Of a stretch of 64,000 nucleotides of DNA, positions 38,747 through 60,500 are shown in pieces (within the stretch, counting starts at the first letter, position 1; each line of letters starts with the position of its first letter). The position numbers and the translations under genes were made by a program. Source of the stretch: an uncultured archaeon (GTDB lineage Archaea; Aenigmatarchaeota; Aenigmatarchaeia; CG10238-14; SCSR01). The DNA is taken from the NCBI GenBank assembly GCA_964373665.1, contig CAYJVM010000002.1, positions 8,923-72,922 of the forward strand, in the 5' to 3' direction. Under the pieces are notes generated by a model. It was not told the origin of the DNA. It worked only from the letters and a program-made list of their open reading frames with translations, and did not search any database.

Positions 38747-38787
38747 TTTACCTTAAACTAACTTGGTTTGTTGAAAATTTAAACATG

Positions 38788-40478: not shown

Positions 40479-42716
40479 ATGGCTGTTGAGTACGAGCTTG
40501 CCGATGGAGTAATCAGGATTAACTGCATGAACTGGGCGATAGCCCCAAGCGTGGAAGACTCGGAGGCGACTATGGCTGTTGTCATAGACACGCTCCTGAA
40601 AGTTCCTGATGCGCACCGCATAGTTCTGGTCGAGGCGCGAGAAAATGAATATGACGAAGACCAGACTAGGATGCTCAGGGAAATTGCGGATGCATATAAC
40701 AGGATAGTCAATATAGACAAGATTCTCAGCATCAAGAACCTTGGTCCGCCGGAATTCGAAAAGCTTTTCCCAAAAAGACTTGCGGATTTGCAGTTCCTTG
40801 TGTTGGAAGTCATGAGGAAAGATCCGATAGGCGCGTACATCAGGATCATAAAGATGGTGAACGCCAACAAGGTGCTTGAGAACACTGCCCCATTTGCGCA
40901 GAAAGCGGCTTTTTCATATTATATCGACAATGCACTAATCCCGATAAAAAATATTATTGAATCATCAAGCCTAATCAAAAAGGCTATGCCTGTCCTTCAA
41001 AACTATCGATTCGGCAGCAGGGACATTTACCGAGAAATATTCTCCCCGACAGTAAAGCCCAATTTCATGCTCACACGACTTATGCTTACAGTGCCGAAAG
41101 GCGCGAGAATGATGGAGAAGTACAGCATCAAGGGAGGCGAGATAGAGATTTACAAACTGCTTAACAAGGTGCGCCATCTTTATCATGTTACGCCGAAGGA
41201 GTTTGTTTTGAGCGACGAAAAGTATTCCATCCTGGACTCGGCGCGAAGATACCTCGCATCTCACAGGCCTACGGAAGCAGAGACAGTCGAGCCAGACAAA
41301 TCGCGGGAGCTCTTCAAAAATCTTGGCAAGGACCTCATAAAGGACGTGGCGCAGAGCATGAACGTAAAGCTGTCTGCGGATGAGATAGAAGAGCTGTCCA
41401 GCATACTGTCACGATACACGGCCGGCTATGGAGTTCTCGAGCTTTTGCTTTCCGACGAGAAAATCCAGGACATCTTCGTAAACTCGCCTATTGGGACAGT
41501 GCCGATATTCATAATACACGGAGACTATGAGGAATGCGAGACAAACTTGATACCGACTATGGGTGACGCGGAAGCGTGGGCCACAAGATTCAGGCTGTTT
41601 TCCGGAAGACCATTGGACGAATCCAATCCTGTGCTTGACACAGAACTGATTGTGCCTGGAGGAAAAGCAAGAGTGGCTGCAATAACAAGGACATTATCGC
41701 CGGAAGGGCTTGCATTCGCATTCAGGAGGCACAGAGAAAAGCCTTGGACGACGTCTTTGTTCATCAAGCACAAAATGATCGACTCTCTTTATTCCGGTGT
41801 GATGAATTTTGTAGTCGACGGCGGAAGAGCATTGCTTGTTGCCGGAGGCCGCGGTTCCGGGAAAACATCTCTGCTGAATGCACTAATGCTTGACATCATG
41901 CCCAAGTTCAGAATCCTTACAGTAGAAGACACACTTGAAATTATTGTGACGGACATGAGGAGATTGGGCTACAACATCGAAAGAATGAAGTCGAGATCGG
42001 TAATTACCAAGGTAGAGACTGAACTGCCGGCAGACGAAGCCCTGAGAACTGCACTGAGATTAGGCGATTCAGTCCTTATATTGGGGGAAGTCAGAAGTCT
42101 TGAAAGCCTTGCCTTGTTTGAAGCCATGAGAATAGGTGCTCTGGCGAATGTTGTCGCTGGCACGATTCACGGCGAATCTGCTTATGGAGTTTACGACAGG
42201 GTTGTGCATGACTTGGGCGTCCCTCCAACTAGCTTCAAGGCGATAGATCTGATCACTATTTGCAACCAGCTCAAGTCGCCCGACGGCCTGCACAGGTTCA
42301 GGAGAGTGACCGAACTGACGGAAGTGAGAAAGCAGTGGAAGAATGATCCGATGGACGAAGGAGGATTTGTCAATTTAATGGAGTATTCTGCGAAGGAAGA
42401 CATGCTAAAGCCGACTGCGACTTTGATCGACGGCGAGTCTCAGGTGCTGAATGAGATAGCAAAGAGAGTCAGGGAATGGAGGGGCCATTGGGATGTTGTG
42501 TGGGACAACATTTTATTAAGGGCGAAAATCAAGCAGACAATGGTGGAGCTTGCCGGGCAGTCGAACAAGCCGAATGTGCTGGAGGCCGACTATTCCGTCG
42601 AATCCAACTCCATGTTCCATCTATTTTCAGAGCAGGTGAGAGATGAGGTTGGGGGAATGGACTCGAAGATGATTTATGACAGATGGCTCGGATGGTTCAA
42701 AGGAAGGATAAAATAG
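40479..42716 (+). CDS. type IV pilus/archaellum-type secretion ATPase (FlaI/VirB11/TadA superfamily) with about 300-aa N-terminal extension
   Basis: Walker A GGRGSGKTSLLNAL, Asp box and His box regions; 745 aa. Confidence 0.75.
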   Translation: MAVEYELADGVIRINCMNWAIAPSVEDSEATMAVVIDTLLKVPDAHRIVLVEARENEYDEDQTRMLREIADAYNRIVNIDKILSIKNLGPPEFEKLFPKRLADLQFLVLEVMRKDPIGAYIRIIKMVNANKVLENTAPFAQKAAFSYYIDNALIPIKNIIESSSLIKKAMPVLQNYRFGSRDIYREIFSPTVKPNFMLTRLMLTVPKGARMMEKYSIKGGEIEIYKLLNKVRHLYHVTPKEFVLSDEKYSILDSARRYLASHRPTEAETVEPDKSRELFKNLGKDLIKDVAQSMNVKLSADEIEELSSILSRYTAGYGVLELLLSDEKIQDIFVNSPIGTVPIFIIHGDYEECETNLIPTMGDAEAWATRFRLFSGRPLDESNPVLDTELIVPGGKARVAAITRTLSPEGLAFAFRRHREKPWTTSLFIKHKMIDSLYSGVMNFVVDGGRALLVAGGRGSGKTSLLNALMLDIMPKFRILTVEDTLEIIVTDMRRLGYNIERMKSRSVITKVETELPADEALRTALRLGDSVLILGEVRSLESLALFEAMRIGALANVVAGTIHGESAYGVYDRVVHDLGVPPTSFKAIDLITICNQLKSPDGLHRFRRVTELTEVRKQWKNDPMDEGGFVNLMEYSAKEDMLKPTATLIDGESQVLNEIAKRVREWRGHWDVVWDNILLRAKIKQTMVELAGQSNKPNVLEADYSVESNSMFHLFSEQVRDEVGGMDSKMIYDRWLGWFKGRIK

Positions 42717-42742: not shown

Positions 42743-43114
42743 ATGGGGAAAGGCGCGGTTGATTATATAGTTGCCATAGTTCTTGGTGTAGCCGTCATAG
42801 CCTTGCTTGGATACTGGTTTTTCACATCACAGAGGGACGGTAGTGGAAGCGCAAATCTGGCTGAATGCACTGCTGTGAAGACCCAATTTTGCGCGATTCA
42901 GACTGAGGAAAACTGGAATAAGATGCTCACCAAATGCGGCGACGCCAACAAGTTCAAGTCAGTTGAAGTGATAGAAACGACAAGTGGCATTAACTTTAAA
43001 AAAATCGACAACCAGTGCAACAGTTTTTGCAGTACTGTGATACCGGGATGGTCGCCCTTATCAAGCAACAACCATCCCGAATGCAGCAAGCCACCTCAAC
43101 CGACAAAAGCCTAG
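42743..43114 (+). CDS. small Cys-containing pilin-like secreted protein (class III signal peptide-like)
   Basis: MGKGAVDYIVAIVLGVAVIALLGYWFF; paralog of 49332 and 52275 genes. Confidence 0.55.
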   Translation: MGKGAVDYIVAIVLGVAVIALLGYWFFTSQRDGSGSANLAECTAVKTQFCAIQTEENWNKMLTKCGDANKFKSVEVIETTSGINFKKIDNQCNSFCSTVIPGWSPLSSNNHPECSKPPQPTKA

Positions 43115-43144: not shown

Positions 43145-45109
43145 GTGGCTATAGTCTCAAGGGATTATGAACAGTTTCTCCGAGAGGAACAACTCGCGAA
43201 AAGATTGACGTTTTACGAGAGGCTATGTTCTTTATTAGAGTTTCTTCCATCACCTGTGACAAAGGGACTGAGGGAAAAATATACTGAAGCAATGGAATTC
43301 TCCCACATGAAGGCGTCGCCGAAAGGTGCATTCAACCTATCAATTCTGGGCACGTTGTTAATATTCGCAGCATCTCTATCACTCTTGTATTTCATCGATT
43401 CTTTCTCCCCAGGATCTGTTATTTTATCGCTTTTCATCGCTTCACTCGCATTTTACTTTCTTGTCAGCTATCCTTTGAGGTATGCGACAATTTTCAGGAT
43501 AAGCGCATCTTCGGAAATGGTTCTCGCGACAATATACATGAGCATTTCCATGCATATCTCGCCAAACTTGGAGAACGCTGTCAAGTTCGCTTCAAAAAAC
43601 TTGAAAGGGTCCCTCGCCAAAGACTTGAGGGGTCTTTTGTGGAATGTATACACACGCAAACACGATAGAATAGAGGACGCCTTCGACAATTTCGTCAAAA
43701 AATGGGAGCGTGAAAACAAAGAGTTCGCCACATCGCTATATCTTATTAAAAATTCCACTGCAGAATCACAGGCTAGACGCGAAAAGTTTCTTGACGAAGC
43801 AGTTTCTGTAATGCTTGAAGGGACAAAGGAGAGGATGCGAGGATATGCCCGAGAGCTAAAGGAACCGGTGACAATATTGAATGCGCTCGGCATACTGCTT
43901 CCGATAATAGGCCTGGTGTTCTTCCCGGTAATAAGCATCTTCCTGCCGGAAATTGTCAAGCCAGTGCTGCTGATTTTGGGCTATGACATTTTCCTCCCCC
44001 TGATAGTTTTCTTCCTTATGTCTAGCTATCTTGAAAAGCGTCCGTACAGCTTCCATCAGCCTGACCTTAGAAAGCATCCAGAGTTCTCTGTGGAGAAATT
44101 CTACGAAAAGCCTTACATAGTTCCTGTCCTAGTGTCCATACCGCTCCTTCTGTTTTCGGGATACAAAATGATAGGCCAAGAAGAAATCTTCAGCTTCGAG
44201 CTTCTGCTGTATTCTATGATAGCCAGCGTCGGAATAGCGGCTGGAGTGATAAGCTATTCCTATCTCTCTGTGCGGAGAAAGCTGAAAATCCGAAAGGAGA
44301 TATCGGACATAGAAGGTGAATTTGCAGAGGCGCTTTTCCAGCTCGGCAGCCTGATAATGCGCGGGATTCCACTTGAGGCAGCAATGAAGAGATCCAAGGA
44401 CCAGTCAAAGAACATGAAGATAGCAGACTTTTTCGACAAGATACTTTACAATATAAAGACTTTTGGAATGACTTTCGAAGACGCAGTTTTCCACAAAGAA
44501 TACGGTGCATTGAGATACTACCCGTCCACTCTCATAGAGGCTGTGATGAATGTCATAGCGGAGACATCGCAGAAGGGCATGCAGAGCGCATCCAAGTCGA
44601 TGGTCATAATTTCAAAATATCTAAAGGACATGCGTGAGGTGGACGATGAGCTGAAGAGCATGATGGAGGATGTGACGTCGACAATGAATACTCAAGCAAT
44701 CATGCTCGCACCGTTAAGCGCGGGTGTTGTCGTAACACTCGCCGCAATAATGACTCGACTTCTCATCAAGCTTGGCGAGTCCATAAAAGACATTTATTCT
44801 GGTCTTGGATCAGCCCTCGGTCCTGCGAGCGACTTGGGGGCAGGCGTCTTCGAGTCAATATTCAACATAAGCTCTATAATCCCAGTGCATGGGTTCCAGC
44901 TCATAGTCGGCATTTATCTTGTGGAGATTGTCACTTTGATAGCAGTAGCTGCCAGTACTATAACTAACGGAGAGGAGAATCTGCTGAAAAGGTTCAATAT
45001 CGCGAAGATACTTTTGTACAGCATGGTCGTCTATATAGTCACTCTTTTCGTCACATACTACATCTTCACTTCGGTAATTTCGATAGAAAACCTCACGGCC
45101 AATAGTTAA
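43145..45109 (+). CDS. FlaJ/TadC-like polytopic membrane platform protein
   Basis: 654 aa, two cytoplasmic T2SS-F-like domains separated by TM helices. Confidence 0.6.
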   Translation: MAIVSRDYEQFLREEQLAKRLTFYERLCSLLEFLPSPVTKGLREKYTEAMEFSHMKASPKGAFNLSILGTLLIFAASLSLLYFIDSFSPGSVILSLFIASLAFYFLVSYPLRYATIFRISASSEMVLATIYMSISMHISPNLENAVKFASKNLKGSLAKDLRGLLWNVYTRKHDRIEDAFDNFVKKWERENKEFATSLYLIKNSTAESQARREKFLDEAVSVMLEGTKERMRGYARELKEPVTILNALGILLPIIGLVFFPVISIFLPEIVKPVLLILGYDIFLPLIVFFLMSSYLEKRPYSFHQPDLRKHPEFSVEKFYEKPYIVPVLVSIPLLLFSGYKMIGQEEIFSFELLLYSMIASVGIAAGVISYSYLSVRRKLKIRKEISDIEGEFAEALFQLGSLIMRGIPLEAAMKRSKDQSKNMKIADFFDKILYNIKTFGMTFEDAVFHKEYGALRYYPSTLIEAVMNVIAETSQKGMQSASKSMVIISKYLKDMREVDDELKSMMEDVTSTMNTQAIMLAPLSAGVVVTLAAIMTRLLIKLGESIKDIYSGLGSALGPASDLGAGVFESIFNISSIIPVHGFQLIVGIYLVEIVTLIAVAASTITNGEENLLKRFNIAKILLYSMVVYIVTLFVTYYIFTSVISIENLTANS

Positions 45110-47743: not shown

Positions 47744-48142
47744 ATGCCAAAGGGTTATATAGCATCTGAGACATCGGTGCACTTCATGAATTATCATTTC
47801 GTGTGGTGTCCGAAGTATCGCAGGAAGATACTTGTCAGGGATGTCAAAAAGAGGTTGGAGAAATTGATACAGCAGAAGACAAAGGAACTGAATGGCGAAG
47901 TCCTATCTCTTGCGATAGGAGACGACCATGTTCATCTGTTCGTCAGGACTACTCCGACAATAGCTCCAAATTCCTTTATAGGAAAAGTAAAAGGGTTCAC
48001 GTCAAGAATACTGAGACAAGAGTTTCCGACTGTGAAATCAAGACTTCCGACGCTTTGGACTCGCTCATATTTCGTTTCAACGCATGGGCATATTTCGGAT
48101 GCAATGATAAAGAAGTACATTGACGAACAAAAGGGAATGTAG
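47744..48142 (+). CDS. tnpA: IS200/IS605 transposase TnpA (Y1 HUH)
   Basis: HVHLFV HUH motif and catalytic Tyr region; 132 aa. Confidence 0.85.
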   Translation: MPKGYIASETSVHFMNYHFVWCPKYRRKILVRDVKKRLEKLIQQKTKELNGEVLSLAIGDDHVHLFVRTTPTIAPNSFIGKVKGFTSRILRQEFPTVKSRLPTLWTRSYFVSTHGHISDAMIKKYIDEQKGM

Positions 48143-49279
48143 ATGAGAAATTATAGGTTCAGAATCTATCCATCGAAGATGCAAGAGAAGGAAATGCAGA
48201 AGCACCTATGGATAGAGAAGAATCTATGGAACATGCTTCTTGAAGTCAACGGAAAAACATACGACGAAACAAAGAAGTTTCTGACAAGGAATGAGATGCA
48301 GGTATTGGTCAAAAATTCAGGATTATTCTCTCAGACAGCACAAACTCTTTCTCATCGGTTGCAGAAAGCGTTATGGAGAATGGTCAAACTTCGAAAGCAG
48401 GGAAAGAAGTGTGGCTACCCAAGATTCAAGAGCATAGATAGAATAAAGAGTCTGAATTATCCGCAAGCGGGATTTAAGCTCGATAAAAAACTGAAGGTCA
48501 CTCCATTCGGCGAAATCAGCATAAAGAAACACCGAGACATCGAAGGCAGGATAAAAACTCTCACTTTGAAACGAGAATCTTCAGGCAAATGGTTCGCTAC
48601 TTTCTGTGCTGAAATCGAACCTCATATGCCAAAGATAAATCATGGAGAGAAAGTTGGTATCGACCTCGGACTTGCAAAATTCGCCATCCTTTCAAACAAG
48701 GAAGTCATAAAGAATCCGAGGCATCTGAAAAAATACGAGAAGAAGCTTGCATTATTGCAACAGAGATTATCAAAAAAGAAGAAAGGAAGCAAGAATAGGA
48801 AAAGAGCCAAGCATAAAGTCGCCTTACTATACGAGAAAGTTGCCAATACACGGACTGACTTCCTTCACAAGACTTCAACGAGACTCGTCAATAGTTATTC
48901 CCTTATAGCGCTTGAGAAGCTTGCGTCTCAGGAGATGTCACAACAAAACTACGGCAAGCAAATCAATGATGCTGGATGGAATATGTTTTCGAATATGGTT
49001 AGCTACAAAGCTGAAAATGCTGGTTGTCGAATCGTATTTGTGAATCCGCATAACACTACACAGGAATGTAGCAACTGCCATGAGATTGTGAAGAAAGGAC
49101 TGCAAGACAGGATACACGACTGTCCCAACTGCAATCTGGTAATGGACAGGGATTTGAACGCTGCAAAGAATATACTCATAAGAGCTACCGCAGGACTTGC
49201 GGGAAGTCAAGCTTCTGGAGATGGAGATTCATTGCCATCTTTGAAGGAAGAAGTCCACATCCTTCAGGGGTGGGAGTAG
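48143..49279 (+). CDS. tnpB: TnpB (IS605 OrfB) RNA-guided endonuclease
   Basis: N-terminal YRFRIYPS..QE; C-terminal Zn finger CSNCHE...CPNCN; RuvC-like residues. Confidence 0.85.
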   Translation: MRNYRFRIYPSKMQEKEMQKHLWIEKNLWNMLLEVNGKTYDETKKFLTRNEMQVLVKNSGLFSQTAQTLSHRLQKALWRMVKLRKQGKKCGYPRFKSIDRIKSLNYPQAGFKLDKKLKVTPFGEISIKKHRDIEGRIKTLTLKRESSGKWFATFCAEIEPHMPKINHGEKVGIDLGLAKFAILSNKEVIKNPRHLKKYEKKLALLQQRLSKKKKGSKNRKRAKHKVALLYEKVANTRTDFLHKTSTRLVNSYSLIALEKLASQEMSQQNYGKQINDAGWNMFSNMVSYKAENAGCRIVFVNPHNTTQECSNCHEIVKKGLQDRIHDCPNCNLVMDRDLNAAKNILIRATAGLAGSQASGDGDSLPSLKEEVHILQGWE

Positions 49280-49331: not shown

Positions 49332-49664
49332 ATGAAAAAAGGCATTGCAGTTCCTTACATCATAGCCATTCTTTTAGGTGTCGCTGTTATAGGCCTTATT
49401 GGTTATTGGCTGTTTCTTTCCGGGAAGGGAATAGGTACAGGAGCCAAAGAGACCGAGTGCAATTCTGAATTGAACATTTACTGCAGCGATTGGTTGAGAA
49501 CTGGATCGGAACCATCTAGATGGGACGGGACATGTAACGCTGTTCTAAGGCCAGCAGTTACGACAAAACCAGACATAAATTACTGCAAGAATAAAGGGTA
49601 TAATATACCAGTCGCAGCCAGTGGTCCAGGAGGCGGTGGGGGCGGAGGAACATCACCGGGATAA
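49332..49664 (+). CDS. small Cys-containing pilin-like protein (paralog)
   Basis: MKKGIAVPYIIAILLGVAVIGLIGYWLF; conserved Cys pair; Gly-rich C-terminus. Confidence 0.55.
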   Translation: MKKGIAVPYIIAILLGVAVIGLIGYWLFLSGKGIGTGAKETECNSELNIYCSDWLRTGSEPSRWDGTCNAVLRPAVTTKPDINYCKNKGYNIPVAASGPGGGGGGGTSPG

Positions 49665-49722: not shown

Positions 49723-51189
49723 ATGAGAACAAGTGTATTTTTTATTCTGTCATTGGTTTTAATTATTTCTTCCTTATATATCTTCATATACGCTACAACG
49801 GCTCAAACTAGTGCAAGTGTTATCTGGGCAGTAACTCCGGTAAATGTCAAGCCTCCAGATAAAATTACAGTTTACGTTCAAACTGTTAGTTCGGATATAA
49901 CAAATGTTAAGGTATGGATAGTAGGTTCCAAAGGCGCTTCTGTACCTCAGGAAGGCTGGAGTTTGTTGACCGAGAAAGCCTCCACCCCCATTACAGTCGA
50001 AATTTCTCCCGATAAATACACCGACTTTCCCCGCGTATATGTTGCTCTTGAACTTTATGAAGGTAACCAACTTGTAGCCACAGGCAACCCCAATTCAGTC
50101 GGCTACAATCCCAGTCTGATTAAAGAAGTTTTGGTTAACGCAGATGTATCAACAGTCGGCGTTGTTTGGAGCATGTCCCACCAAATCACGTCTTCACCTC
50201 AGTTCATCCAAGTCAATGTGGATTCGATCAGTGGCGATTTTGACGAGGTCAGAGTTTGGGCCGCAGGATCTACTGGCACAGATGCACCGCAAAGTGGCTG
50301 GACAAGATGGGCGAGTTGGCATTACCATACCTTGTCGCCTTCGATAAAAATTCCGACAAGAGAGTATATCGGCAGTTCTTACGTGTACATCGTCCTTGAT
50401 CTGGTCAAGGACGGCAAGGTGATAGTATCAGGATATCCCTATGTCGGGCATTATAACCCAGAACTGCGTAAAGAAGTGTCTGTTAGCTTGTCGAGACCTT
50501 CCATTCAGATCTCTTACAGAGATAGGGCGACTTCTGAAGAAAACATAACCGGCACAATATATGCTACAGCTGGAAACTTCGACGAAATCCGCATTTATGC
50601 AGCAGGTTCAAATGGTGATATGCCGATAGTAGGATGGACAAGATGGTATACAAAGACACCCACATCTGTGCCTTTCAACTATTCAATTCCTGCAAAAGAC
50701 TACAGGACATTTTCACGCGTATACCTCGTTTTCGATCTGGTCAAGGACGGCAAGGTGATAGCATCAGGATACAAATATTCTTCAGCATATAAAGCAGACC
50801 TCCAGGTACCAGTTGCTATTGGTACACAACCGCTCCCAGCTTCTCCATTCAATGCTACTTGGAGCGTCGCACCGACATCTGTAAGCATCCCTAACGAACT
50901 CGAGGTTAAAGTGGATTCTTCTACTGGCAATCCCGATAGAATACATGTTTGGTCAGCTGGCTCCAAAGATCAGAATTCTTGGCCGATAGTAGGATGGACA
51001 AGATGGACAAAAGACATAGCAACACCCACACCCTTCACAGTAAAAATAAAGAGTGATGATTATTCAGACTCTTCTATTGTATTCGTTGTTCTGGAACTGA
51101 CGAAAGGCGGCAACTTAGTAGCAACCGGAAATGCTAATGCCCCCAGCTATGATTCTAAGCTCCGTCGAGACATACAAATAACAAAATAA
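49723..51189 (+). CDS. secreted surface protein with four tandem repeats of about 110 aa
   Basis: signal peptide; repeats beginning VWIVGSKG / VRVWAAGSTG / IRIYAAGSNG / IHVWSAGSKD with conserved GWTRW and DLVKDGKVI blocks. Confidence 0.6.
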   Translation: MRTSVFFILSLVLIISSLYIFIYATTAQTSASVIWAVTPVNVKPPDKITVYVQTVSSDITNVKVWIVGSKGASVPQEGWSLLTEKASTPITVEISPDKYTDFPRVYVALELYEGNQLVATGNPNSVGYNPSLIKEVLVNADVSTVGVVWSMSHQITSSPQFIQVNVDSISGDFDEVRVWAAGSTGTDAPQSGWTRWASWHYHTLSPSIKIPTREYIGSSYVYIVLDLVKDGKVIVSGYPYVGHYNPELRKEVSVSLSRPSIQISYRDRATSEENITGTIYATAGNFDEIRIYAAGSNGDMPIVGWTRWYTKTPTSVPFNYSIPAKDYRTFSRVYLVFDLVKDGKVIASGYKYSSAYKADLQVPVAIGTQPLPASPFNATWSVAPTSVSIPNELEVKVDSSTGNPDRIHVWSAGSKDQNSWPIVGWTRWTKDIATPTPFTVKIKSDDYSDSSIVFVVLELTKGGNLVATGNANAPSYDSKLRRDIQITK

Positions 51190-51322: not shown

Positions 51323-51850
51323 ATGTTACAAGATTACAACGTATATAGGATACTAAGACTCTTCTTTGATTCCCCGACAAAACATTTTCAACTTCGGGAA
51401 ATAAGCAGAATAACTAAAATTGGTTTACCAAGTGTGCGGAACCACGTCAAGAGGCTCGAAAGGCTTGGATTTGTGAAAAAAAAGAAAACATCCGTATACA
51501 CATCTTTTGTTTCAAATAGGGACGATGAAAAATTCCTTACTTATAAGAGAAGTGATACTCTAATTAGGCTCCATGAAACAGGTCTTGTTTCTTATTTGGC
51601 GGAGAAATCACTCCCTGATACAATAGTACTCTTTGGTTCATGCTCAAGAGGAGAAGATATCGAAACAAGCGACATAGATTTGTTCATTCAAGGACCAGAA
51701 GAAAAAATAGACTTGGGTCGGTTTGAAAGCAAATTGAAAAGAAAAATAAATTTGCTATTTGAAAACGACATAAAAGATATCTCAAACGAGCTAATGAACA
51801 ACATAATAAACGGAATCGTAATTTACGGTTATCTGAAGGTTTTGAAATGA
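51323..51850 (+). CDS. nucleotidyltransferase (MNT) with N-terminal wHTH domain
   Basis: IVLFGSCSRGEDIETSDIDLF GSx10DxD motif. Confidence 0.8.
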   Translation: MLQDYNVYRILRLFFDSPTKHFQLREISRITKIGLPSVRNHVKRLERLGFVKKKKTSVYTSFVSNRDDEKFLTYKRSDTLIRLHETGLVSYLAEKSLPDTIVLFGSCSRGEDIETSDIDLFIQGPEEKIDLGRFESKLKRKINLLFENDIKDISNELMNNIINGIVIYGYLKVLK

Positions 51851-52272
51851 AAGAGTGGGAAGAGGTTGAAGCTGAAGTCTGGAAAACAACTCCAGATAAA
51901 GAAATGACTCGCTCTATACTAAAGATGGCAGACGTAAGATTACGTGCTATAGAATCCTTAAATAAAAAAGAATTCATGTCAATAATAGTAGAAAACTATT
52001 ACGAGGTCATTAAAGAATTGATAACTGCCTTAATGTCTGCAGATGGCCTCAAAACGCTTAGGCACGAAGTCTTAATAGTATATTTGAAAAAGTTTCACAA
52101 AAGTTTCGACAGAGGCGAATTATTCATTATCGATCAATTAAGGCAGACAAGAAATAAAATCGTGTATAAAGGATTTTTCGTGCAGGAAGCTTATTTGGAA
52201 AGAAATGAAAATAAGTTAAGGATGATAATAGAAAAACCACGAAAAATAATAACGCAAAAGCTCGGTTATTAA
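51847..52272 (+). CDS. HEPN domain protein
   Basis: 141 aa, overlaps MNT by 4 nt, helical; typical HEPN-MNT pair. Confidence 0.65.
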   Translation: MKEWEEVEAEVWKTTPDKEMTRSILKMADVRLRAIESLNKKEFMSIIVENYYEVIKELITALMSADGLKTLRHEVLIVYLKKFHKSFDRGELFIIDQLRQTRNKIVYKGFFVQEAYLERNENKLRMIIEKPRKIITQKLGY

Positions 52273-52274
52273 TT

Positions 52275-52574
52275 ATGCCCAAAGCAGTCGCCGTCCAGGC
52301 AGTCTTCATGATTGGAGTAATCGCTATAACATTGTTCTTTATAGTCGCCATATTCGCCCAATGGATCGACATAACAAAATGGGGAGCCAATGAGGCCGCC
52401 TGCACAGCCAAAAAAACCAGCTACTGCAGCAACTGGATAGTTAGAAGCCAATGCACTAAATGGGAAGTGGAATGTGGAACAGTCCCGTCCAGAGAGCAGT
52501 GCTGCACAGAAGTTCTCCGCAGAAACTCGGACGACCCTTTATGTGTGAAAGCACCCACATGCCCAAGTTCTTAA
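52275..52574 (+). CDS. small Cys-containing pilin-like protein (paralog)
   Basis: MPKAVAVQAVFMIGVIAITLFFIVAIF; conserved C..C pattern. Confidence 0.55.
   Translation: MPKAVAVQAVFMIGVIAITLFFIVAIFAQWIDITKWGANEAACTAKKTSYCSNWIVRSQCTKWEVECGTVPSREQCCTEVLRRNSDDPLCVKAPTCPSS
52279..52310 (+). repeat. direct repeat copy 2 (inside intact pilin-like gene start)
   Basis: identical 32-mer. Confidence 0.8.
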
Positions 52575-52598: not shown

Positions 52599-53213
52599 AT
52601 GAAAGGCGCTGTGGCCGCTGATGCCCTCATCAACGTTGGTTTTATAGTAATTTCAGTTGCCCTCCTCGCCACACAAGCACCTGCAATGATAAACGACATC
52701 AACGTTGTTTTGACGCATGAGAAAGTGACTAACGAGGCGAGGGAAATTTCCAACATGCTTAGCATCGCGAAGAACGCTCCTGATGAAATCAAAATTACAC
52801 ACACCATGCCCTCGGATGACTATAGTGTTAGGATAGGAAAAGATGGTGTTGTCGAAGTGTGTGACGATAGTTACTGTGGAAAATCAGAATCATTCGTCCA
52901 GTTTGAAGAGGAACTCGACGAGAGTGACGTTGGCCACATCAGCATAACAAAGAGCGTGGAAGATGGAGTATCAGTAGTGGACGTGTCCAAGATATCTATT
53001 TTGGCTGCATCTGTTGGAGCATCCGAATGCATAGAGTATGCTGTAGTTACCGGGGATACATTGTGGGACATTGCAATAGAATTTTACGGGGACGGCGTCA
53101 AGTGGCCGATAATATATGAAGCCAATAAAGAGGTCATAGGCGACAATCCAAACCTAATTCTCGTAGGTCAGGTGCTTTGCATACCTGAGATTTCTTCGGA
53201 GGGAACTGGATGA
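52599..53213 (+). CDS. pilin-like/secreted protein with C-terminal LysM domain
   Basis: YAVVTGDTLWDIAIEFYGDGVKWPIIYEANKEVIGDNPNLILVGQVLCIP LysM consensus. Confidence 0.75.
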   Translation: MKGAVAADALINVGFIVISVALLATQAPAMINDINVVLTHEKVTNEAREISNMLSIAKNAPDEIKITHTMPSDDYSVRIGKDGVVEVCDDSYCGKSESFVQFEEELDESDVGHISITKSVEDGVSVVDVSKISILAASVGASECIEYAVVTGDTLWDIAIEFYGDGVKWPIIYEANKEVIGDNPNLILVGQVLCIPEISSEGTG

Positions 53214-53806
53214 ACAGAAAAGGAACGTCGTACATAGTGCCCTTATTCTCCCTTCTTTTCACAGGCGTCCTAGCGCTCACTATGGCCTACATCCTGCCTT
53301 CGCAGTACGTCAGCATAACACAAGTCATAGACCACAAGGAGTTTGAGAACAAGGCGATGATTCTAGGAAACTTGTTGTTGTCCAATCACGATCTGGTTTA
53401 TTTCGATGACCCTGTATATTACCGCGGAGTGTTCGAAAAAGACAAGCTTGATGAAAAAATGGTTCAGAAAAGCGATTTTGGAAATGTTGAAAAGTTGATG
53501 GAGTGTACACAGCTATGCGATTCATTAAAGGCACTGCCAGGCTCTGTCGGTTTTGTTCTAATCTCCGACGCCGCTAATTCTGACGAGTGGTACTCTATCC
53601 TGTATCCAAACGGAGATCGCCCTGATATAGAAAGATGTTTCGGACAGCTTTCAGAAGCGATTTTGGAAAAGATATTCGACAGCAATGGTTTGCAGGAATG
53701 CGGATATAGTTCGTCAACAATACTTACCGAGTCATTCGCCGCAAGCATTAGGTATTCCGACGACGAAATAAAGGTAGGCAGGATAAGGATAGTGATGGTA
53801 GAATGA
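53210..53806 (+). CDS. pilin-like N-terminus hypothetical protein
   Basis: MNRKGTSYIVPLFSLLFTGVLALTMAYIL. Confidence 0.4.
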   Translation: MNRKGTSYIVPLFSLLFTGVLALTMAYILPSQYVSITQVIDHKEFENKAMILGNLLLSNHDLVYFDDPVYYRGVFEKDKLDEKMVQKSDFGNVEKLMECTQLCDSLKALPGSVGFVLISDAANSDEWYSILYPNGDRPDIERCFGQLSEAILEKIFDSNGLQECGYSSSTILTESFAASIRYSDDEIKVGRIRIVMVE

Positions 53807-55860
53807 AATCGATGGCTGAACTTCCACTCATCGGTCTGATAGGCACCATGACGATAATGGCATCAATAATCATACCGCCTACAATAGTAAAGACGGCGTT
53901 GGACCAGGAGCTGGGCTACACGTACGATTACGAGAAGAGCCAAAACGCTTTACTGTCTCTCCTGTATTCAAAGGAAGGTGGTGTAAGCAATTATGAACAG
54001 CTAGGTACTAGTTACGTCCTTAACCAGCCGATAGGAGGTGGGATACAAAACCAGTTAGAGACGCTAGTAGGAAGCGAGTATTCAGTGGTAATATCAGATG
54101 TAAGCGACGGTTCCGTTACTCCACTAGTCGCTGATCCTGACATCCAAGTAGGTTCGGAAGTTCCTGTTCTTGTCTTGAAATATTTCCCTATGGACAGTAC
54201 CAAGAAAAGACTTGATTCTGCCCAGACAGGTGGAAGAGCCGATACCCTAGAAACAATAAGACTGAAAGTCGATACCGCAACTGCTCAAGGCATTTCTGCA
54301 ATGACAAAAGCAAGTATCTACAAAGGCTATAAAAATTCTAACGTACAGCCGTATCTAAGATACTATATTTTTGAGGAAAAGGAATTTCTCACAAATATAC
54401 CCAAATCTTCCGAATTTCCTCCCTTTGCCGATCACGAAAAAGTGCTTTCTGATTTGAACATTTGCGATTATATTGACAGAAAAGGGGTGAAGCAAGTATG
54501 GATTTGGATGTGGCATACCAAAGATCTGGTTCCTCTGGAATCCAATATGGCGATGGGCATGAATTCAAAAGAGTTCTGGAATTTCGAAGCTTACGGTGAC
54601 GTGAGTAATAGCTTTAGGCAAAATGATCTTCCGGCATGCCAGAATACGTATACGGTATTTGAATATAATTCTGATATAAATCTGGTCGGGGAGGGCCTTG
54701 GGGGAGTAATGGAGGACCACGGGCACCAGATAGAACACATATTGAACTGGGTAGATGGCAGGGATGATACACCGAAAGAGAAATGGGGCGACCTTCTTTT
54801 TTGGGGCGAATTTGTTGGAAGCGACAGTTCACACAAGATAGTTAATCCTGGATGCGGCTGGACGCACTACAGCCCAAACTCAATCGAAGATTATGACTGG
54901 CAGAATGAAAATGATGTTCTCTCCGATTGTGAGAACTGGAAACCTGACGGAACTGCCCAGAAAACTACGATTGACTGCCATGAATGGTACGGCAAGAATT
55001 GCAAAGACGACGGAGGCGCAGCTTGGAAAAAATGGTGGATGCAAAACATCCCAGGAAAAGATAACGGCTTGATTTACAATGAAAGGAAGTTGAGAAATTG
55101 GTGGGAGTTCATAGGAGATTTTGATAGTGCTCTAGACAAAGGCAAGAACCTGCTTGGCGAATCAGTTTCACTTACCCCGTTGACTACAGGCGGATACTTG
55201 CTTACAGGCGAATCATCAGAATACTCGAGTTCAATCACAGGAAAAGTTACCACCCCCCCAATTTCAAGTGGTATATGCGCTTTGGCCATAGACGGTTCGT
55301 GTACGTCAAGCAATCTACAAACAACCTGCTTCAGCGGAAGGGAGCTTGAAGCATCGCAGATATGCAAGGCGGAAAGCGGTGGCAATCCAGAATCACTCAG
55401 CAGGAGTGATGTGTGTCAGGACGGAACCCCATTTTCTATAGGATTATTCCAAATAAATTTAGTTTGCCATGGAACTAAAGTGGATCCAGAATGTCAAGGC
55501 ATATTTGATGTAGGGTGTGGTGAATTAAGATACATCAAGGACAGAAATGTATACAACTGTCGTCTCATAGACAAGTCCAAGTATGATATGTGTGTACAAA
55601 AACTAAAGGACGCTAGCGCAAACATCCAAGTAGCATGCCAGATATCCAATAATGGAAACAACTGGTGTCCTTGGACTGCTGCTAAAGTGTGTGGTTTCTG
55701 CAGCGAAACTGGCACACCAGCAAGACCACCAGCAAGTTCGACTCCAGGAAAAACTCTATTGGGAAATGAAAAATTCTCTAGAGTCGTCTTTAACACAGTG
55801 TTCGTTGTTCCTTTCAACAGCGAATCTTTGGTGAAAATTATGAGGATTGGTTTGGCATGA
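53803..55860 (+). CDS. large secreted/pilin-like protein with C-terminal GH23 (SLT) lytic transglycosylase-like domain
   Basis: AESGGNPESLSRSD...GTPFSIGLFQIN matches SLT ES...GLMQ motif. Confidence 0.65.
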   Translation: MKSMAELPLIGLIGTMTIMASIIIPPTIVKTALDQELGYTYDYEKSQNALLSLLYSKEGGVSNYEQLGTSYVLNQPIGGGIQNQLETLVGSEYSVVISDVSDGSVTPLVADPDIQVGSEVPVLVLKYFPMDSTKKRLDSAQTGGRADTLETIRLKVDTATAQGISAMTKASIYKGYKNSNVQPYLRYYIFEEKEFLTNIPKSSEFPPFADHEKVLSDLNICDYIDRKGVKQVWIWMWHTKDLVPLESNMAMGMNSKEFWNFEAYGDVSNSFRQNDLPACQNTYTVFEYNSDINLVGEGLGGVMEDHGHQIEHILNWVDGRDDTPKEKWGDLLFWGEFVGSDSSHKIVNPGCGWTHYSPNSIEDYDWQNENDVLSDCENWKPDGTAQKTTIDCHEWYGKNCKDDGGAAWKKWWMQNIPGKDNGLIYNERKLRNWWEFIGDFDSALDKGKNLLGESVSLTPLTTGGYLLTGESSEYSSSITGKVTTPPISSGICALAIDGSCTSSNLQTTCFSGRELEASQICKAESGGNPESLSRSDVCQDGTPFSIGLFQINLVCHGTKVDPECQGIFDVGCGELRYIKDRNVYNCRLIDKSKYDMCVQKLKDASANIQVACQISNNGNNWCPWTAAKVCGFCSETGTPARPPASSTPGKTLLGNEKFSRVVFNTVFVVPFNSESLVKIMRIGLA

Positions 55861-57509
55861 AGGCGGCAGTAAACACGGCGCTAGTGGCGTCAGCAAGCGT
55901 ATTGGCTTTTATCGGAGTGTTTTCTCTAGGCCTTGTGCAACAATCTGAGATTATCCTGAAGGATTTGAATGAGAGGTCTGTTATGGAAAGCATAAACCAG
56001 ATGGAATTCGCCAAAATGGCGGTTCGGCAGTCGGCTATTTATTCAACACACCAAAGCGTTTACGAGACTATCAAGTATGGATACTATTCCACAACAGGAT
56101 GCGACGCGGACAGTTTCGGTGGCATTCCATATTGGAGAACTTTTGACAGCGAATGTCCACCCATTGCACTTGAGACAGACCTGACTGAAAACCTTCAGCA
56201 GAGATTCGATTCGTATTTGATGTCATTGAAACTGCAGGTCGAAAAAATCGGGATTACAATACCCCATATAAAAATCCAAGTCCGGAGCATTGCCGACAAT
56301 GAAATCATTTTGCAGCCAGCATCTACCGAGAAAATCAGGCTCACCGGCAGGAATGTTGAGATAAATGACTTTCCTGACCTCAGGGAGAACGTAAAGATGG
56401 GGATATCTGATATCATCCAATTTGCCATGCAGAAATTTGTCCTTGTCGATTCCTTATTGATGGAGATAGATAAAGCGGAAGATCAGATGCCAAAAGAATG
56501 CAAGGAGATAACAGTGACAAGGTGTATAGCTCCGCCCGTAGAAACTAAAAAAGACCTTCTAAACCAGCAATGTCCCAATGCGCTCGGCAAGTATGAAAAT
56601 CTGATAAGGGAAAATGTGGCTGGACTCGATTCCAGTCTTGATTCAGCCAGCATGGACACGAAGTTAACGATAACGGGAATAAAGTCAAAGGTCGACACTG
56701 AGCCTGGGGACGAACCATCGACATGTACTGTTACATCGGCAGAGGATGTGAGGTGTGGATGCAAAAGGTCAGGGCAATTCGGTTGCTTGGAGTATTATCC
56801 AAAATACACAAAGACATGCACCTATGACTATTCGGCAAGCATGAATACGCTGGTCAACATAGTCAATAAAATAAAGGCATACACTGTTTACGACGCGCTT
56901 GTTAGAACCACCGATTCAAGGAATTTGGAATTGAACTTTTATGTCGCGAGCGGCGACAGCTCCCTAGGATTTCCTGAAGGCACGCCAGTTTTCTATTCGC
57001 CTCCATTCGAAAAGATTGGATGGATTTCAGAGCCATCAAGTCCGGTTGACACATCTGGTCTGCCTTCCGATTGTCCGTCTATCTGGCCTGTGCAAAGCGG
57101 ATATGTCAATCAAGGACCCGGAGGCAGCGCTTCACACAGCAATCCGATACTTGAAGCGATTGATATTCATGCGAGAACAGGGACACCAGTCTACACCACC
57201 CACGATGGCATAGTCACAGGCGCTGGAGTGGATAGCTATGGCGGATGGTACGTTAAAATAGCGGGTAATTGTAATGGGAAATCGTTCAGTAGCCTTTACG
57301 TCCATTTCGTCAGCAACAGCCTAACTGTAAAGGTCGGTGATAGTGTAACGAAAGGCACTAAAATCGGTGCTCTCGGCTGTACGGGAATATGCGGCGACCC
57401 GCACGTGCACTATGAGTTCAGAGGCCTGACAATGAAACACCCAGAGATCCCCAAAGATGTTCCTAGAAACTGTGTGGGTGCAACATCATGCCGTGTGGAG
57501 ATAGCTTAA
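55857..57509 (+). CDS. secreted M23 (LytM-type) metalloendopeptidase
   Basis: HSNPILEAIDIHARTGTPVYTTHDG ... GDPHVHYEF: HxxxD and HxH M23 motifs. Confidence 0.8.
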   Translation: MKAAVNTALVASASVLAFIGVFSLGLVQQSEIILKDLNERSVMESINQMEFAKMAVRQSAIYSTHQSVYETIKYGYYSTTGCDADSFGGIPYWRTFDSECPPIALETDLTENLQQRFDSYLMSLKLQVEKIGITIPHIKIQVRSIADNEIILQPASTEKIRLTGRNVEINDFPDLRENVKMGISDIIQFAMQKFVLVDSLLMEIDKAEDQMPKECKEITVTRCIAPPVETKKDLLNQQCPNALGKYENLIRENVAGLDSSLDSASMDTKLTITGIKSKVDTEPGDEPSTCTVTSAEDVRCGCKRSGQFGCLEYYPKYTKTCTYDYSASMNTLVNIVNKIKAYTVYDALVRTTDSRNLELNFYVASGDSSLGFPEGTPVFYSPPFEKIGWISEPSSPVDTSGLPSDCPSIWPVQSGYVNQGPGGSASHSNPILEAIDIHARTGTPVYTTHDGIVTGAGVDSYGGWYVKIAGNCNGKSFSSLYVHFVSNSLTVKVGDSVTKGTKIGALGCTGICGDPHVHYEFRGLTMKHPEIPKDVPRNCVGATSCRVEIA

Positions 57510-57519
57510 AAATACTCAA

Positions 57520-60500
57520 TCAACACGGTCCTAGTCCACAAATATTAGCATTAATTCTCCAAGGACACCAATTATTTCTACCTTGATATATCTGGCACGC
57601 TACCTGTATGTTTGTATTAGGATCCTTAATTTTTTGGACACATCTGTCATATTGTTCCATGTCGTTGACCCAGCAATTCCATTTAACGCATATGTCGGGC
57701 CTTGTAGAACTATATTCAAGGCATGTTCCCAGCGAGTCAGATCCTTCCTTCGAGAATAAATTCAAACAATCGCCGCCTATTTTGCTTGCATGTGCAATCA
57801 CATTCACTTGGAACAGGCCGAACGAAAATGATGTTCCATCCCTGCATTTATCGACGCCACTAACAGAGTTGGGATTAGCCCCGCTCTCAGCCTTGCATAT
57901 CTGGGAAGCTTGAAATCCATCCGTTGATGCAATTGTTCCGAAGCATGTTGATTGAAGATTAGAGACAGAACAAGGCCCGCTGTCCAGTGTCGGGCATGTA
58001 CCAGGAGTTGTAGAACCAGGGCCTGTGATTGTTGGTGTGCTCGCAGTTGAACTCTTGAGCCCATATACAGACAATCCACGCTCGCAATAGTAAGGCAATG
58101 AAAAGAACTGGGTGTGCAGTTGACTGTACTCATCACTCCCCACGATAATAGCCTCGGGGATGAATTTCTTCTCCACGCTGGCACTTGTAGAGAATTTTTC
58201 TGTGTAAGTGTAATCCATGTCCACTATCAATGGAATTGTGGCAAAACTACCCTGGATGATCAAGTCTCTGGTAAGGTCAGCGGCATCACAAACAAAGGTT
58301 ACGCTTTTCTGGCTATCCAGAAATGTCTTCGGCTTTGGAACACAACTGTCCGTACTCATGCCTTTTATACTCAATGTCTTTATTTCTGCACTACCCTTCC
58401 CACCGTTCGCCACATCTATAAACAGCGTCACCTTGCTTGTAGGCTTTTCCAACGAGTGAACATCCGGGATAAAGTAGGTTGTCACTGTCAGCGGACCTGA
58501 GCTGCTCGTAACCTGCGGCTTTGGAGCCAGTTTCCTATCAGCTTCTGTCTTGACAACAATCAAGTCACCCTTCCCTTCGACTGTATAGTCATACTTCGCT
58601 CTCAGCTCTACAGTTGCTTTATCACCGCTTATAAAGCACAGGTTGTCCATTATATTGTAATAATTATTGTACCTGCAGTCGCACGAATAGTCGTTAGGTA
58701 AATATCTGACAGATTTTTCATCAAGATCGTTGCTCACACGGTACCTACTGTTGCTTGCCGCCAAGGATTGCCTACAATAGTCAAGACAAACATTGTTTAG
58801 ACATATTCTATCCTCAAACAAACCCTGTGTACATTGATTAATTTTGTTCATCACAGCAATATTGTCTCCGATGTATTCAGTGTTCTTCGCTGTGGCAAGC
58901 GGTTTGGACGGAACACCTCTTGTGGACGATATTATTTGTGCGCAGTTAATATTGTTGCCGATCCCAACAAGACTACCGCTCTGAATGGCCTTTCCTGTAA
59001 ACTGCACCACCAGAGTCTTCTCTTCCTCCGGCTTTATGTCGCCCAGCGCAGTTTTGCCCGTGGGTTGGGGATTAGGCACCACCTCACCATCCCTAACTAT
59101 AGGCTCTGACTCGAAGGTCCCGCACATGACCCTGTCGACACTTCCGTTGACTATGTAGACCTCGTCTATGGTGAAAGACTTGACAGGCTTTGTTCCAATA
59201 TCAACTTTGTTCGGATTTGTGACAGTTACGGGAAGCAGATAATCCATCCTCGCAAACATAGTAGGTAGTTTGAAGGAGTTGACGCTTGCGCCGAACTTGA
59301 CCTGGATCGCTTCAAAGCCGCCGACTTTTTTCACCTCAGGCTTTAATGGTTGCACGGCTTGGATATTGAGAAAACTTAGGATACTCCTTATGCCCTGCTT
59401 CATCCCATCTATTGTTTCTTGCGGAACTCCCACAACTCTGAGCACGTCCAGCGGTCGGAGGTATGTTTCGATGTTAAGAAATGCGCCTGTCGTAAAAAGA
59501 TTGCCGACATAGAATATAAGTCCAATTCCACCCATGATGCCGGTCAACCAGAGTATTGTGCGACCAAGGCCATTCACAACACCGGCATCCTCGATGTTCC
59601 TTCTTGTTATGAATGTTATGACAAAAAATACAATGATGGGTATGCCCCAGCGTATTGTAGGGCTGTCCAATACCGGCAGAGGACCTATATTCAGCAAAAC
59701 CCATACGAATATGGCTGCAACAGCCCCCACTATCCCGGACTGCCAATCTCTAGCCTCTAATTGACGGTTCGGTAGAACATTGTATACGGCAAAGAAGAAA
59801 GCTATGGGAACGAACCATGTAAGAATCCACCAAGGCGGTGTAAACGGATCGCCAAGATTCAGACCCACTATTACTATCGGTTGATAAAACAAAAAGTTTA
59901 CCACAAGTGTGATAATAAGCGCGATAACAGCTCTAATAATTCTGCTCCTGTTAGTTACAAAACCTACTGCCCTCCCTGCGGCTCCTCTAGGATTTTGTAT
60001 TACATTTCCCACCTGTTCCAATTTAAAGTCAGCTTGGTTGGCACCCGCATTTATTCTTATCGGCTGTCTTGTTTGTCTGAATCCGCCTGCGGAAGCCTGG
60101 GCAGTGTGCCTGCCAGTTGGTATGTTAGCTATCTCATAATGTCCGAAGTCATCTGTGTTTCCAACATGTCCCCCCACATCGACAGTAGCGCCACGAATTG
60201 GTCCAGCTGCACTACTCACCGTACCTTCCAAATTTCCTTCCCTTGCTTCTTGGAGAGGCTGTAGCTGGATCGTTCCGACATCAACAGTTTGATTAGGTTG
60301 AACTACATTCGACTGTACGTTCTCCGTATCATAACCGTCAGCAGATATGTGTACACTATACGATCTTCCAGCACGAACGTCAACTCTAAAATTACCATTT
60401 AAGTTAGTGGCGACAGTAGAACCACCAGCATTTACAGAGGCCCTCCTTATAGGATTGTTATTAGTTGCATCAACAACCCTGCCTTGTATAGATCCCCGTT

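Follow-up and report, generated by a model that had tools for sequence, protein, structure and literature searches.

A cysteine-rich module that occurs in two large proteins of the DNA stretch presented here (64,000 nucleotides of contig CAYJVM010000002.1, hereafter called the window) is, by its profile match, a copy of Pfam family PF18896, SLT_3 ("Lysozyme like domain"), in each of them. The module is a new, archaeal member of this known but uncharacterised family. The proteins, of 685 and 1044 amino acids (aa), are encoded by convergent genes at an operon for pilin-like proteins, the scaffolds of which are conserved in other archaeal contigs, while the cargo domains are exchanged. We favour, with moderate confidence, the interpretation that the module is an extracellular, disulfide-stabilised peptidoglycan glycosidase, which was probably derived from the Candidate Phyla Radiation (CPR), duplicated and shuffled, and which, alongside LysM and M23 domains, is presented on the surface of the cell and acts where this cell meets a bacterial host or prey.

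Two copies of an SLT_3 module

The two proteins are similar in one segment. In a BLASTP comparison, aa 471-632 of the 685-aa protein aligned to aa 869-1041 of the 1044-aa protein with 79 identities in 176 positions (45%, E=2e-38), and no significant similarity was recovered from the remaining segments, which gave only noise. The aligned stretch corresponds to nucleotides 55213-55698 (+) and 57532-58050 (-), approximately, and the similarity sets in at a Ser/Thr/Pro-rich linker just ahead of the first Cys. Both open reading frames exist, and their translations contain the peptide strings cited in an earlier note on this DNA, which had proposed that the C-terminal modules of two convergent large proteins are homologous and share eight or more Cys. 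The alignment confirms the homology and yields 11 aligned Cys (492/887, 500/895, 509/904, 521/920, 538/937, 564/963, 586/994, 597/1005, 612/1020, 622/1030 and 630/1039 in the 685-aa and 1044-aa proteins, respectively), with 14 Cys in each module. Two details have to be amended: the module forms the C-terminal end of the 1044-aa protein, as proposed, but is followed by a tail of about 50 aa after the CGFC motif in the 685-aa protein, and the two genes are convergent but separated by the gene for an M23 peptidase (55857-57509, +).

The copy in the 685-aa protein matched PF18896 with 36.4 bits, for a gathering threshold of 27 bits. The copy in the 1044-aa protein scored 23.5 bits, which is under this cut-off, and 209.8 bits (E=1.6e-57) against a family profile made from five sequences. 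An exhaustive hidden Markov model search with this profile against 1.84 billion representatives (clusters at 50% identity) identified 1265 family representatives at E<=1e-3, including 909 at E<=1e-10 and 115 at E<=1e-30. A word-indexed homologue search with the module recovered only 3 relatives.

Conservation was scored in the 151 top family representatives, using the numbering of the 685-aa protein. The putative catalytic Glu524 as well as Gly547 and Gln550 are conserved in 100% of these sequences, Ser525, Asp536 and Ser545 in 99%, and Leu548, Phe549, Ile551 and Asn552 in 93-99%, followed by Tyr594, Asn607, Ala611 and Trp624 (95-99%) and Trp621 (87%). Four Cys (492, 564, 597 and 630) are invariant (99-100%), and six others (500, 509, 521, 538, 586 and 612) are conserved in 62-87%. 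Both window copies hold all signature residues, that is Glu-Ser, Asp, S-x-G-L-F-Q-I-N (S545 to N552 in copy 1), Tyr, Asn-Ile, W..W and the four invariant Cys (columns 87-100%). In 124 of the 151 representatives, the module ends exactly at the C-terminus of the protein. This extreme C-terminal position is the normal one in CPR, whereas the copy in the 685-aa protein is internal.

The variable Cys come and go in pairs in an alignment of 232 sequences, with co-occurrence coefficients (phi) of 0.95 for Cys 500-521, 0.96 for 509-612, 0.91 for 538-586 and 0.84 for 978-989 (1044-aa numbering), the last being an optional loop pair present among the 14 Cys of copy 2. Such paired gain and loss fits disulfide partners. 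Among the 151 representatives, the Cys of the NWCPW motif (C622/C1030) is exclusive to the window copies. In the 1044-aa protein, five hydrophobic segments (aa 239-384) are followed by a Cys-rich outer region of 500 aa and then by the SLT_3 module; two Cys, forming a CxxC motif, are located in the N-terminal 238 aa and 26 in the 660 aa that follow the last of these segments. The loop charges agree with an N-in, C-out topology according to the transmembrane and charge analysis. The earlier description of the module as disulfide-stabilised and extracellular is thus supported by the paired Cys and by a predicted topology that places the Cys-rich C-terminal 660 aa outside the cell.

A structural model obtained with AlphaFold2 from an alignment of 36 family sequences had a pLDDT of 94.4 and a pTM of 0.87; this alignment was used instead of one with 5 sequences, for which the pLDDT was only 51. 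In a Foldseek search against the PDB, 41 of the 44 matches were to c-type lysozymes, alpha-lactalbumins or lytic transglycosylases, the best being 1hen (E=0.11, probability 0.90, TM-score 0.42-0.50). Phage SLT-domain transglycosylases were the top matches among viral models (probability 0.9-1.0; best E=6.8e-3, probability 1.0). E524-S525 is located at the end of model helix 32-43 and is followed by S545-I-G-L-F-Q550. An hhalign comparison with hen and human lysozyme, which covers the core only, places E524 on E35, S545 on D52, G547 on G54, Q550 on Q57 and N552 on N59. Structural neighbours that are almost only lysozymes and SLT transglycosylases speak against a non-hydrolase fold. The GH23-reminiscent ES...GLFQ core that had been noticed in the sequence is supported by these neighbours, by the SLT_3 match over the cut-off and by the 93-100% conservation of Glu-Ser and S-x-GLFQIN.

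With GH23 transglycosylases and goose-type lysozymes, the module shares a Glu-Ser at a helix end and a subsequent S-x-G-L-x-Q on a hairpin, and phage SLT proteins and MltD/Slt are among its structural neighbours. It differs from GH23 by an insertion of 12 residues with the invariant Asp between Glu-Ser and the hairpin, by its predicted heavy disulfide bonding and by a C-terminal half that does not resemble the AYNxG motif. The data do not establish GH23 membership in the strict sense, given a PF01464 match below the cut-off and no fold match at E<=1e-3. GH22, an animal family that includes hen egg-white and human lysozyme, and alpha-lactalbumin provided the best PDB matches in the Foldseek search, and they share with the module ES...G(I/L)(L/F)QIN in an identical register, small size, several disulfides (predicted ones in the module) and an ending of the form W-x-x-W...C-x-G. 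We considered membership of GH22 on the basis of the Foldseek ranking and the GILQIN and W..W..C-G likeness, but rejected it because Ser occupies the position of Asp52 and the profile likeness is not significant (hhalign probability 16%). The TM-score is about 0.5. The C-terminal W-x-x-W...C-x-G of SLT_3 is as in the AWVAWRNRCKG of hen lysozyme, and the top PDB fold matches are to hen lysozyme, not to bacterial transglycosylases. SLT_3 could represent a link in evolution from one of these lysozyme families, GH22, to the other, GH23, but the likeness has no statistical significance.

Conserved scaffolds and exchanged cargo

The window encodes several archaeal markers, namely Alba (117 bits against the equivalog model), STT3/AglB, an RPA-like protein with an OB-fold and an archaeal-type pilus ATPase, and also PCMT; the host is a DPANN archaeon, probably one related to the Aenigmatarchaeota. 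The 685-aa protein is the fourth product of a tight operon of five genes on the + strand (Table 1). All five proteins have a short N-terminus followed by one hydrophobic segment. A pattern search (regular expression) for M-x(0-5)-[KR]-[GA] followed by a hydrophobic stretch identified four of them (52275, 52599, 53210 and 55857), and the same K-[GA] and hydrophobic motif is present in the genes at 42743, 45475 and 49332, making seven genes within 42.7-57.5 kb, in the neighbourhood of the T2SSE ATPase and T2SSF platform genes. The 550-aa protein matched Pfam Peptidase_M23 with 64.9 bits, and NCBIfam models of ShyC/ShyA/MepM-type endopeptidases. In the 198-aa protein, no recognisable cargo domain and no Pfam match was found; a word-indexed homologue search returned only the protein itself, and a metagenome scan with an alignment of this protein and its orthologue in contig L001 (introduced below) gave no match.

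The cargo of the 685-aa protein is, as read from its sequence, inserted between an N-terminal scaffold and a C-terminal tail, and it comprises a second domain of about 330 aa ahead of SLT_3. A total of 246 homologues of this central domain were identified at E<=1e-3, with 40-58% identity and covering aa 120-450 only, and no match was obtained in Pfam, NCBIfam or PDB sequences. The domain contains the motifs PVLVLxYFP, ESNMA, GDVSNS, EDHxHQIE, GCGWTHYPPN, SDCEDWKPDG and WWMQNIPG. Its homologues are found in CPR, DPANN, Omnitrophota, Planctomycetota and Ignavibacteriales. Outside the window it is fused to dockerin, CARDB, a prepilin N_methyl motif, cadherin, Kelch, LRR, C-type lectin or GH116, and it looks like an uncharacterised extracellular enzyme. 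In the other carrier, the 1044-aa protein, the CxxC and two Ig-like CarboxypepD_reg domains lie in the N-terminal 217 aa (60004-60654), ahead of the first membrane segment. They are predicted to be cytoplasmic because no signal peptide precedes this segment, which is unusual for such domains. The L001 orthologue is without most of this N-terminal region, and its alignment starts from window residue 170 (own residue 50).

We compared the locus to three further archaeal contigs: the 786-kb Ca. Aenigmatarchaeota contig JACPJU010000001.1 (L001), L082, and the groundwater contig L084. The window locus is syntenic with L001, and the scaffolds are conserved while the cargo differs (Table 1). The 720-aa orthologue of the 685-aa protein in L001 carries a GH5 cellulase-family domain (52.6 bits) in place of the window cargo. 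At the position of the window LysM protein, the 412-aa protein of L001 (10714-11952) has a stretch AAVESGGG...SYGIFQLN that resembles the lysozyme core. We do not claim this stretch as SLT_3, as it scored only 14 bits against the family profile and had no Pfam match; it may be another, more divergent lysozyme-like domain. In L082, the operon is immediately preceded by a homologue of the 42743 gene, after which come a homologue of the 99-aa gene and the gene for a 237-aa pilin-like protein with SLT_3 as cargo, which occupies the position of the window LysM protein. The gene order in L084 is Alba, a 760-aa membrane protein with a C-terminal SLT_3, and then a convergent pair. One protein of this pair, of 374 aa, is homologous to the 550-aa protein but devoid of M23, and the other has 147 aa. 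The latter has a tail similar to that of the 685-aa protein and looks, from its sequence, like a cargo-less form of this scaffold: a global alignment to the stalk and tail gave z=7.9 against shuffles, and since a BLAST comparison with the 685-aa scaffold was not significant, the orthology rests on the global alignment and the gene position.

Across these genomes, the cargo is LysM, SLT_3, M23, GH5 or none, and the stable element of the locus is, as far as sequence comparison goes, the SLT_3 membrane carrier beside Alba. Domain shuffling, which the earlier note had suggested from the duplicated module, is strongly supported by the finding that the same scaffolds carry different cargo in three other archaeal contigs.

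Table 1. Features of the SLT_3 locus in the window and their counterparts in L001.
Feature	Coordinates	Strand	Description	Counterpart in L001
SLT_3 lysozyme-like module, copy 1	55264..55707	+	aa 488-635 of the 685-aa protein; family-profile envelope 488-635	
SLT_3 lysozyme-like module, copy 2	57523..58008	-	aa 883-1044, true C-terminus of the 1044-aa protein	
99-aa Cys-rich pilin-like protein	52275..52574	+	First operon gene; 56% identical to 103-aa protein of L082	95 aa, 52% identity
204-aa pilin-like protein (MKG AVAADAL...)	52599..53213	+	C-terminal LysM, aa 147-196 (Pfam LysM 36.5 bits)	412 aa, 45% over N-terminal 133 aa only; cargo differs
198-aa pilin-like protein	53210..53806	+		223 aa, 41% identity over full length, E=1e-57
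685-aa protein	53803..55860	+	Central domain without family match and SLT_3	720 aa, only aa 7-101 (42%) and tail 660-683 (54%)
N-terminal scaffold of 685-aa protein (aa 1-110)	53803..54132	+	Hydrophobic segment aa 7-25 and conserved stalk	42% identical to aa 9-102 of 720-aa orthologue
Central conserved domain, about 330 aa (aa ~120-450 of 685-aa protein)	54160..55152	+	Second cargo domain	
C-terminal scaffold tail (aa 660-683 of 685-aa protein)	55780..55851	+	FNTVFVVPFNSESLVKIMRIG; conserved in L001 orthologue	54% identical to aa 695-718 of 720-aa orthologue
550-aa pilin-like protein	55857..57509	+	C-terminal M23 peptidase domain aa 434-522; start overlaps preceding stop by 4 nt	481 aa, homology aa 1-367 only; without M23
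Polytopic membrane carrier, 1044 aa	57520..60654	-	N-terminal CxxC, two CarboxypepD_reg, five hydrophobic segments, Cys-rich region, SLT_3	881 aa, 35% over aa 170-1035, E=1e-167; SLT_3 kept
Alba				Alba, 68% identity
PCMT				PCMT, 61% identity
Type IV pilus-like ATPase	40479-42716	+	Pfam T2SSE 62.1 bits	
Small pilin-like protein	42743-43114	+	K-G and hydrophobic N-terminus	
PilC-like platform protein	43145-45109	+	Pfam T2SSF 26.0 bits	

A scan of one genome per GTDB species identified 80 loci with the module, of which 79 are bacterial and one is archaeal. Nearly all bacterial loci are labelled Patescibacteria/CPR, a few carry other labels (Bdellovibrionales, Gammaproteobacteria and Oscillospiraceae), and the sole archaeal locus is L001, which is also the best match. 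The CPR proteins show the same Glu-Ser, Asp and S-x-GLFQIN signature, the same W..W...C-G ending and the same paired-Cys pattern as the window modules. Their usual partner is the VirB2-like T4SS_pilin domain (PF18895), which is present in 81 of the 118 SLT_3 members of up to 500 aa, whereas in the window the module is carried by an archaeal polytopic membrane protein in one case and by a type-IV-pilin-like protein in the other. Weak PF01464 matches were seen in 10 of the 118 short members, and the long CPR members contained no other recognisable domain. The module was most likely captured from CPR/Patescibacteria, a direction of transfer to which this distribution points. It was then probably duplicated in the lineage and shuffled onto surface scaffolds, as suggested by the sequence comparisons; the two window copies are sisters in both neighbour-joining trees, and the NWCPW Cys that they alone possess provides independent support for an intragenomic duplication.

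Proposed function and its alternatives

In the proposed mechanism, the invariant Glu (E524/E923) at the helix end would act as the general acid, the S-x-G-L-F-Q-I-N hairpin would form the substrate groove, and the domain would owe its stability outside the cell to five to seven disulfides. There would be two routes of display, one in which SLT_3 forms the external C-terminus of a membrane protein with five helices and another in which it is cargo inserted into a type-IV-pilin-like protein. SLT_3, LysM and M23 together would bind bacterial peptidoglycan and cleave both its glycan strands and its peptide cross-links, at the site where the archaeon touches a bacterial host or prey. Archaea of this group are neither known nor expected to have murein. 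The suggestion in the earlier note that the module belongs to a toxin is not supported as such, and a surface-displayed cell-wall hydrolase fits better. A more specific version of this interpretation, which we put forward only tentatively, is an "enzymatic pilus", in which minor pilin-like subunits of a type-IV-pilus-like filament would serve as modular carriers of swappable wall-degrading cargo, including the CPR-derived glycosidase, for the breaching of bacterial walls. The cargo (SLT_3, M23, LysM, GH5 or the 330-aa domain in the genomes compared) would sit between an N-terminal pilin stalk and a C-terminal strand, both of them conserved.

Related arrangements are known from other systems. 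Archaeal proteins with class III signal peptides have, like the operon proteins, a short N-terminus with K/R-G/A, a hydrophobic segment and a functional extracellular domain, and are encoded near a pilus-type ATPase and platform protein. The sugar-binding proteins of the Sulfolobus bindosome reportedly have class III (prepilin-like) signal peptides and carry functional domains; these are solute-binding domains, whereas the cargo of the operon described here consists of cell-wall hydrolases. Proteins with lytic transglycosylase domains in other DPANN archaea (Woesearchaeota, Pacearchaeota) have already been interpreted as devices against bacterial walls (PMC8204110, PMC9723730). As here, a bacterial-type peptidoglycan glycosidase is located on large extracellular proteins (fam00969, PMC8204110; Vigneron et al. 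2022, PMC9723730), but the present lineage is Aenigmatarchaeota-like, the domain is SLT_3 rather than a GH23 SLT, and the module is duplicated in a cargo-swapping pilin-like operon together with M23 and LysM. The theme of DPANN cell-wall hydrolases is thus already known, and what is new is the cargo-swapping pilin-like operon in an Aenigmatarchaeota-type genome.

Several observations weigh against the proposed interpretation. No structural match was obtained at E<=1e-3 in the PDB or among the viral models, and TM-scores were only 0.4-0.55. The hhalign probability for c-type lysozyme covers just 31 columns. PF01464 matched the 1044-aa protein with 15.8 bits (E=0.011), which is under the cut-off of 21.3 bits, and did not match the 685-aa protein in the Pfam scan. 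Because sequence searches of the PDB with both module profiles matched no lysozyme and no solved SLT_3 structure, and because no mention of PF18896 was found in the open-access literature searched, we infer the activity of SLT_3, and peptidoglycan as its substrate, from the conserved core and the structural neighbours. The M23 domain (57156-57422) has an intact HxH motif (PHVHYE), but its alignments to ShyA, LytM and TagE begin at the Asp of HxxxD, and at this site it reads LEAID, with the first zinc-ligand His not aligned; the domain may therefore be divergent or use another ligand. The GH5 glycanase cargo in L001 implies that the apparatus may not target peptidoglycan alone.

Other observations bear on the pilus and on the origin of the module. 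The N-terminus of the 685-aa protein (MKSMAELPL...) is without the K-G motif that its L001 orthologue (MKGQTAF...) has, no class III signal or pilin model was matched in Pfam or NCBIfam at E<=0.1, and no prepilin peptidase (peptidase A24) was found among the scanned open reading frames of the window. The operon proteins are termed pilin-like on the basis of their N-terminal motif and gene neighbourhood. In the trees, the bootstrap value for the sister relationship of the window copies is only 48% and that for archaeal monophyly 7%, with the consequence that neither a single acquisition nor its direction is demonstrated. One neighbour-joining tree suggested a mostly archaeal clade, from which, at a bootstrap of 7%, we do not claim archaeal monophyly or a single acquisition.

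The same enzyme chemistry could also serve another purpose, as an antibacterial weapon or a nutrient-scavenging lysin that is shed or displayed outside any host-contact or pilus device. Conservation of the catalytic type and partners such as LysM and M23 would suit any role in peptidoglycan degradation, the GH5 cargo and the fusions of the central domain to dockerins and CARDB elsewhere point to general polymer degradation, and a "vampiristic" or scavenging way of life has been proposed for DPANN archaea (PMC9723730). However, the hydrophobic anchors at the N-termini of all five operon proteins and the five-helix membrane protein that carries the other copy argue against free secreted enzymes, and the operon is linked to pilus genes both in the window and in L082; we give this role a limited chance. 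A role directed at the producer itself, in which its own envelope is remodelled for the passage of a pilus or secretion apparatus as by VirB1, is suggested by the fusion of SLT_3 to VirB2-like pilins of type IV secretion systems (T4SS) in CPR. In a survey of CPR T4SS, VirB1-type hydrolases with M23 and LysM domains are described in the surroundings of these systems (PMC12102498). In T4SS-associated hydrolases (VirB1, PrgK, TraG) and in CPR hydrolases encoded next to virB4, as here, a lysozyme-like domain is found together with M23 or LysM in the setting of a secretion apparatus or surface filament (PMC12102498). Those enzymes open the wall of the cell that makes them, whereas in the present case that cell is archaeal, T4SS genes were not seen, and the annotated parts of the window showed no murein gene. 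In an archaeal cell without murein the hydrolase would have no target in the cell that produces it, and we regard a self-directed role as improbable.

Loss of catalysis would turn the module into an adhesin that uses a lysozyme-like fold for glycan binding only. Alpha-lactalbumin, which illustrates that the lysozyme fold can lose activity, is among the structural neighbours, and a Ser is found at the position of Asp52 of hen egg-white lysozyme; yet Ser at this position is the normal state in GH23 enzymes, and the retention of the Glu at the catalytic position and of the adjacent Ser in such diverse representatives makes an adhesin unlikely. That the module family is otherwise almost exclusively found in Patescibacteria could, finally, indicate that CPR DNA was joined to an archaeal contig during assembly or binning. 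Archaeal genes are nevertheless located on both flanks within one contig, Alba, the SLT_3 membrane carrier and the convergent pilin-like operon recur in the 786-kb Aenigmatarchaeota contig and in the independent groundwater contig, and no CPR counterparts of the N-terminal scaffolds were found, which renders such an artefact highly improbable. A surface-displayed hydrolase used in contact with bacteria is thus the interpretation that we retain.

Neighbouring genes and biological meaning

Several other features were observed in the window. At 47744-49279, the pilus genes are separated from the hydrolase operon by an IS200/IS605 element, which encodes a Y1 transposase (128 bits) as well as an OrfB that is TnpB/Cas12f-like (103 and 82 bits). 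This element is followed by a 110-aa pilin-like gene (49332-49664), which precedes a gene for a secreted-looking protein of 488 aa (49723-51189) with four internal repeats of about 115 aa (...AGS.G...GWTRW...V.L.L.K.G..-ASG...) and no family match. A nucleotidyltransferase and partner pair lies on each side of the hydrolase region (51323-52272 and 62043-62799); a HEPN domain is clear in the second pair (70 bits), no Pfam match was obtained for the partner in the first pair, and both pairs are likely MNT/HEPN toxin-antitoxin-like. Four paralogous genes in tandem (37055-39294) each encode a polytopic membrane protein (168-208 aa) without a family match; they lie beside the pilus ATPase gene and those of two coiled-coil proteins, and might contribute accessory components to the pilus. 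No match was obtained when the window was scanned for Rfam families and tRNAs.

Fusions of SLT_3 and T4SS_pilin in CPR are exemplified by P0007, P0009, P0062 and others, and by the loci L002 (5422-6399) and L003 (5287-6411). In the passages found of the CPR T4SS survey, most genomes with VirB2 are described to lack a recognisable VirB1, and no mention of such a fusion is made there (PMC12102498). The CPR pilin may, as its domain composition suggests, carry its own wall hydrolase, and SLT_3 might explain how CPR bacteria with VirB2-like pilins, which according to this survey are mostly without a recognisable VirB1, handle cell walls (PMC12102498). If the enzymatic pilus exists, it would imply cross-domain episymbiosis or predation, and fusions of pilins and lysozymes would be a convergent solution in both ultra-small radiations.

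With motifs that lie between those of c-type and g-type lysozymes, SLT_3 is a family whose characterisation would fill a gap in the lysozyme superfamily. An operon position that is occupied by LysM, SLT_3, another domain or nothing in related genomes offers a natural model of how enzymatic cargo is gained by surface scaffolds. To our knowledge, the hosts of most DPANN archaea are not known. A conserved set of peptidoglycan-cutting proteins with predicted exposure on the surface, in an Aenigmatarchaeota-like genome, would provide testable evidence of an interaction with bacteria rather than with archaea.

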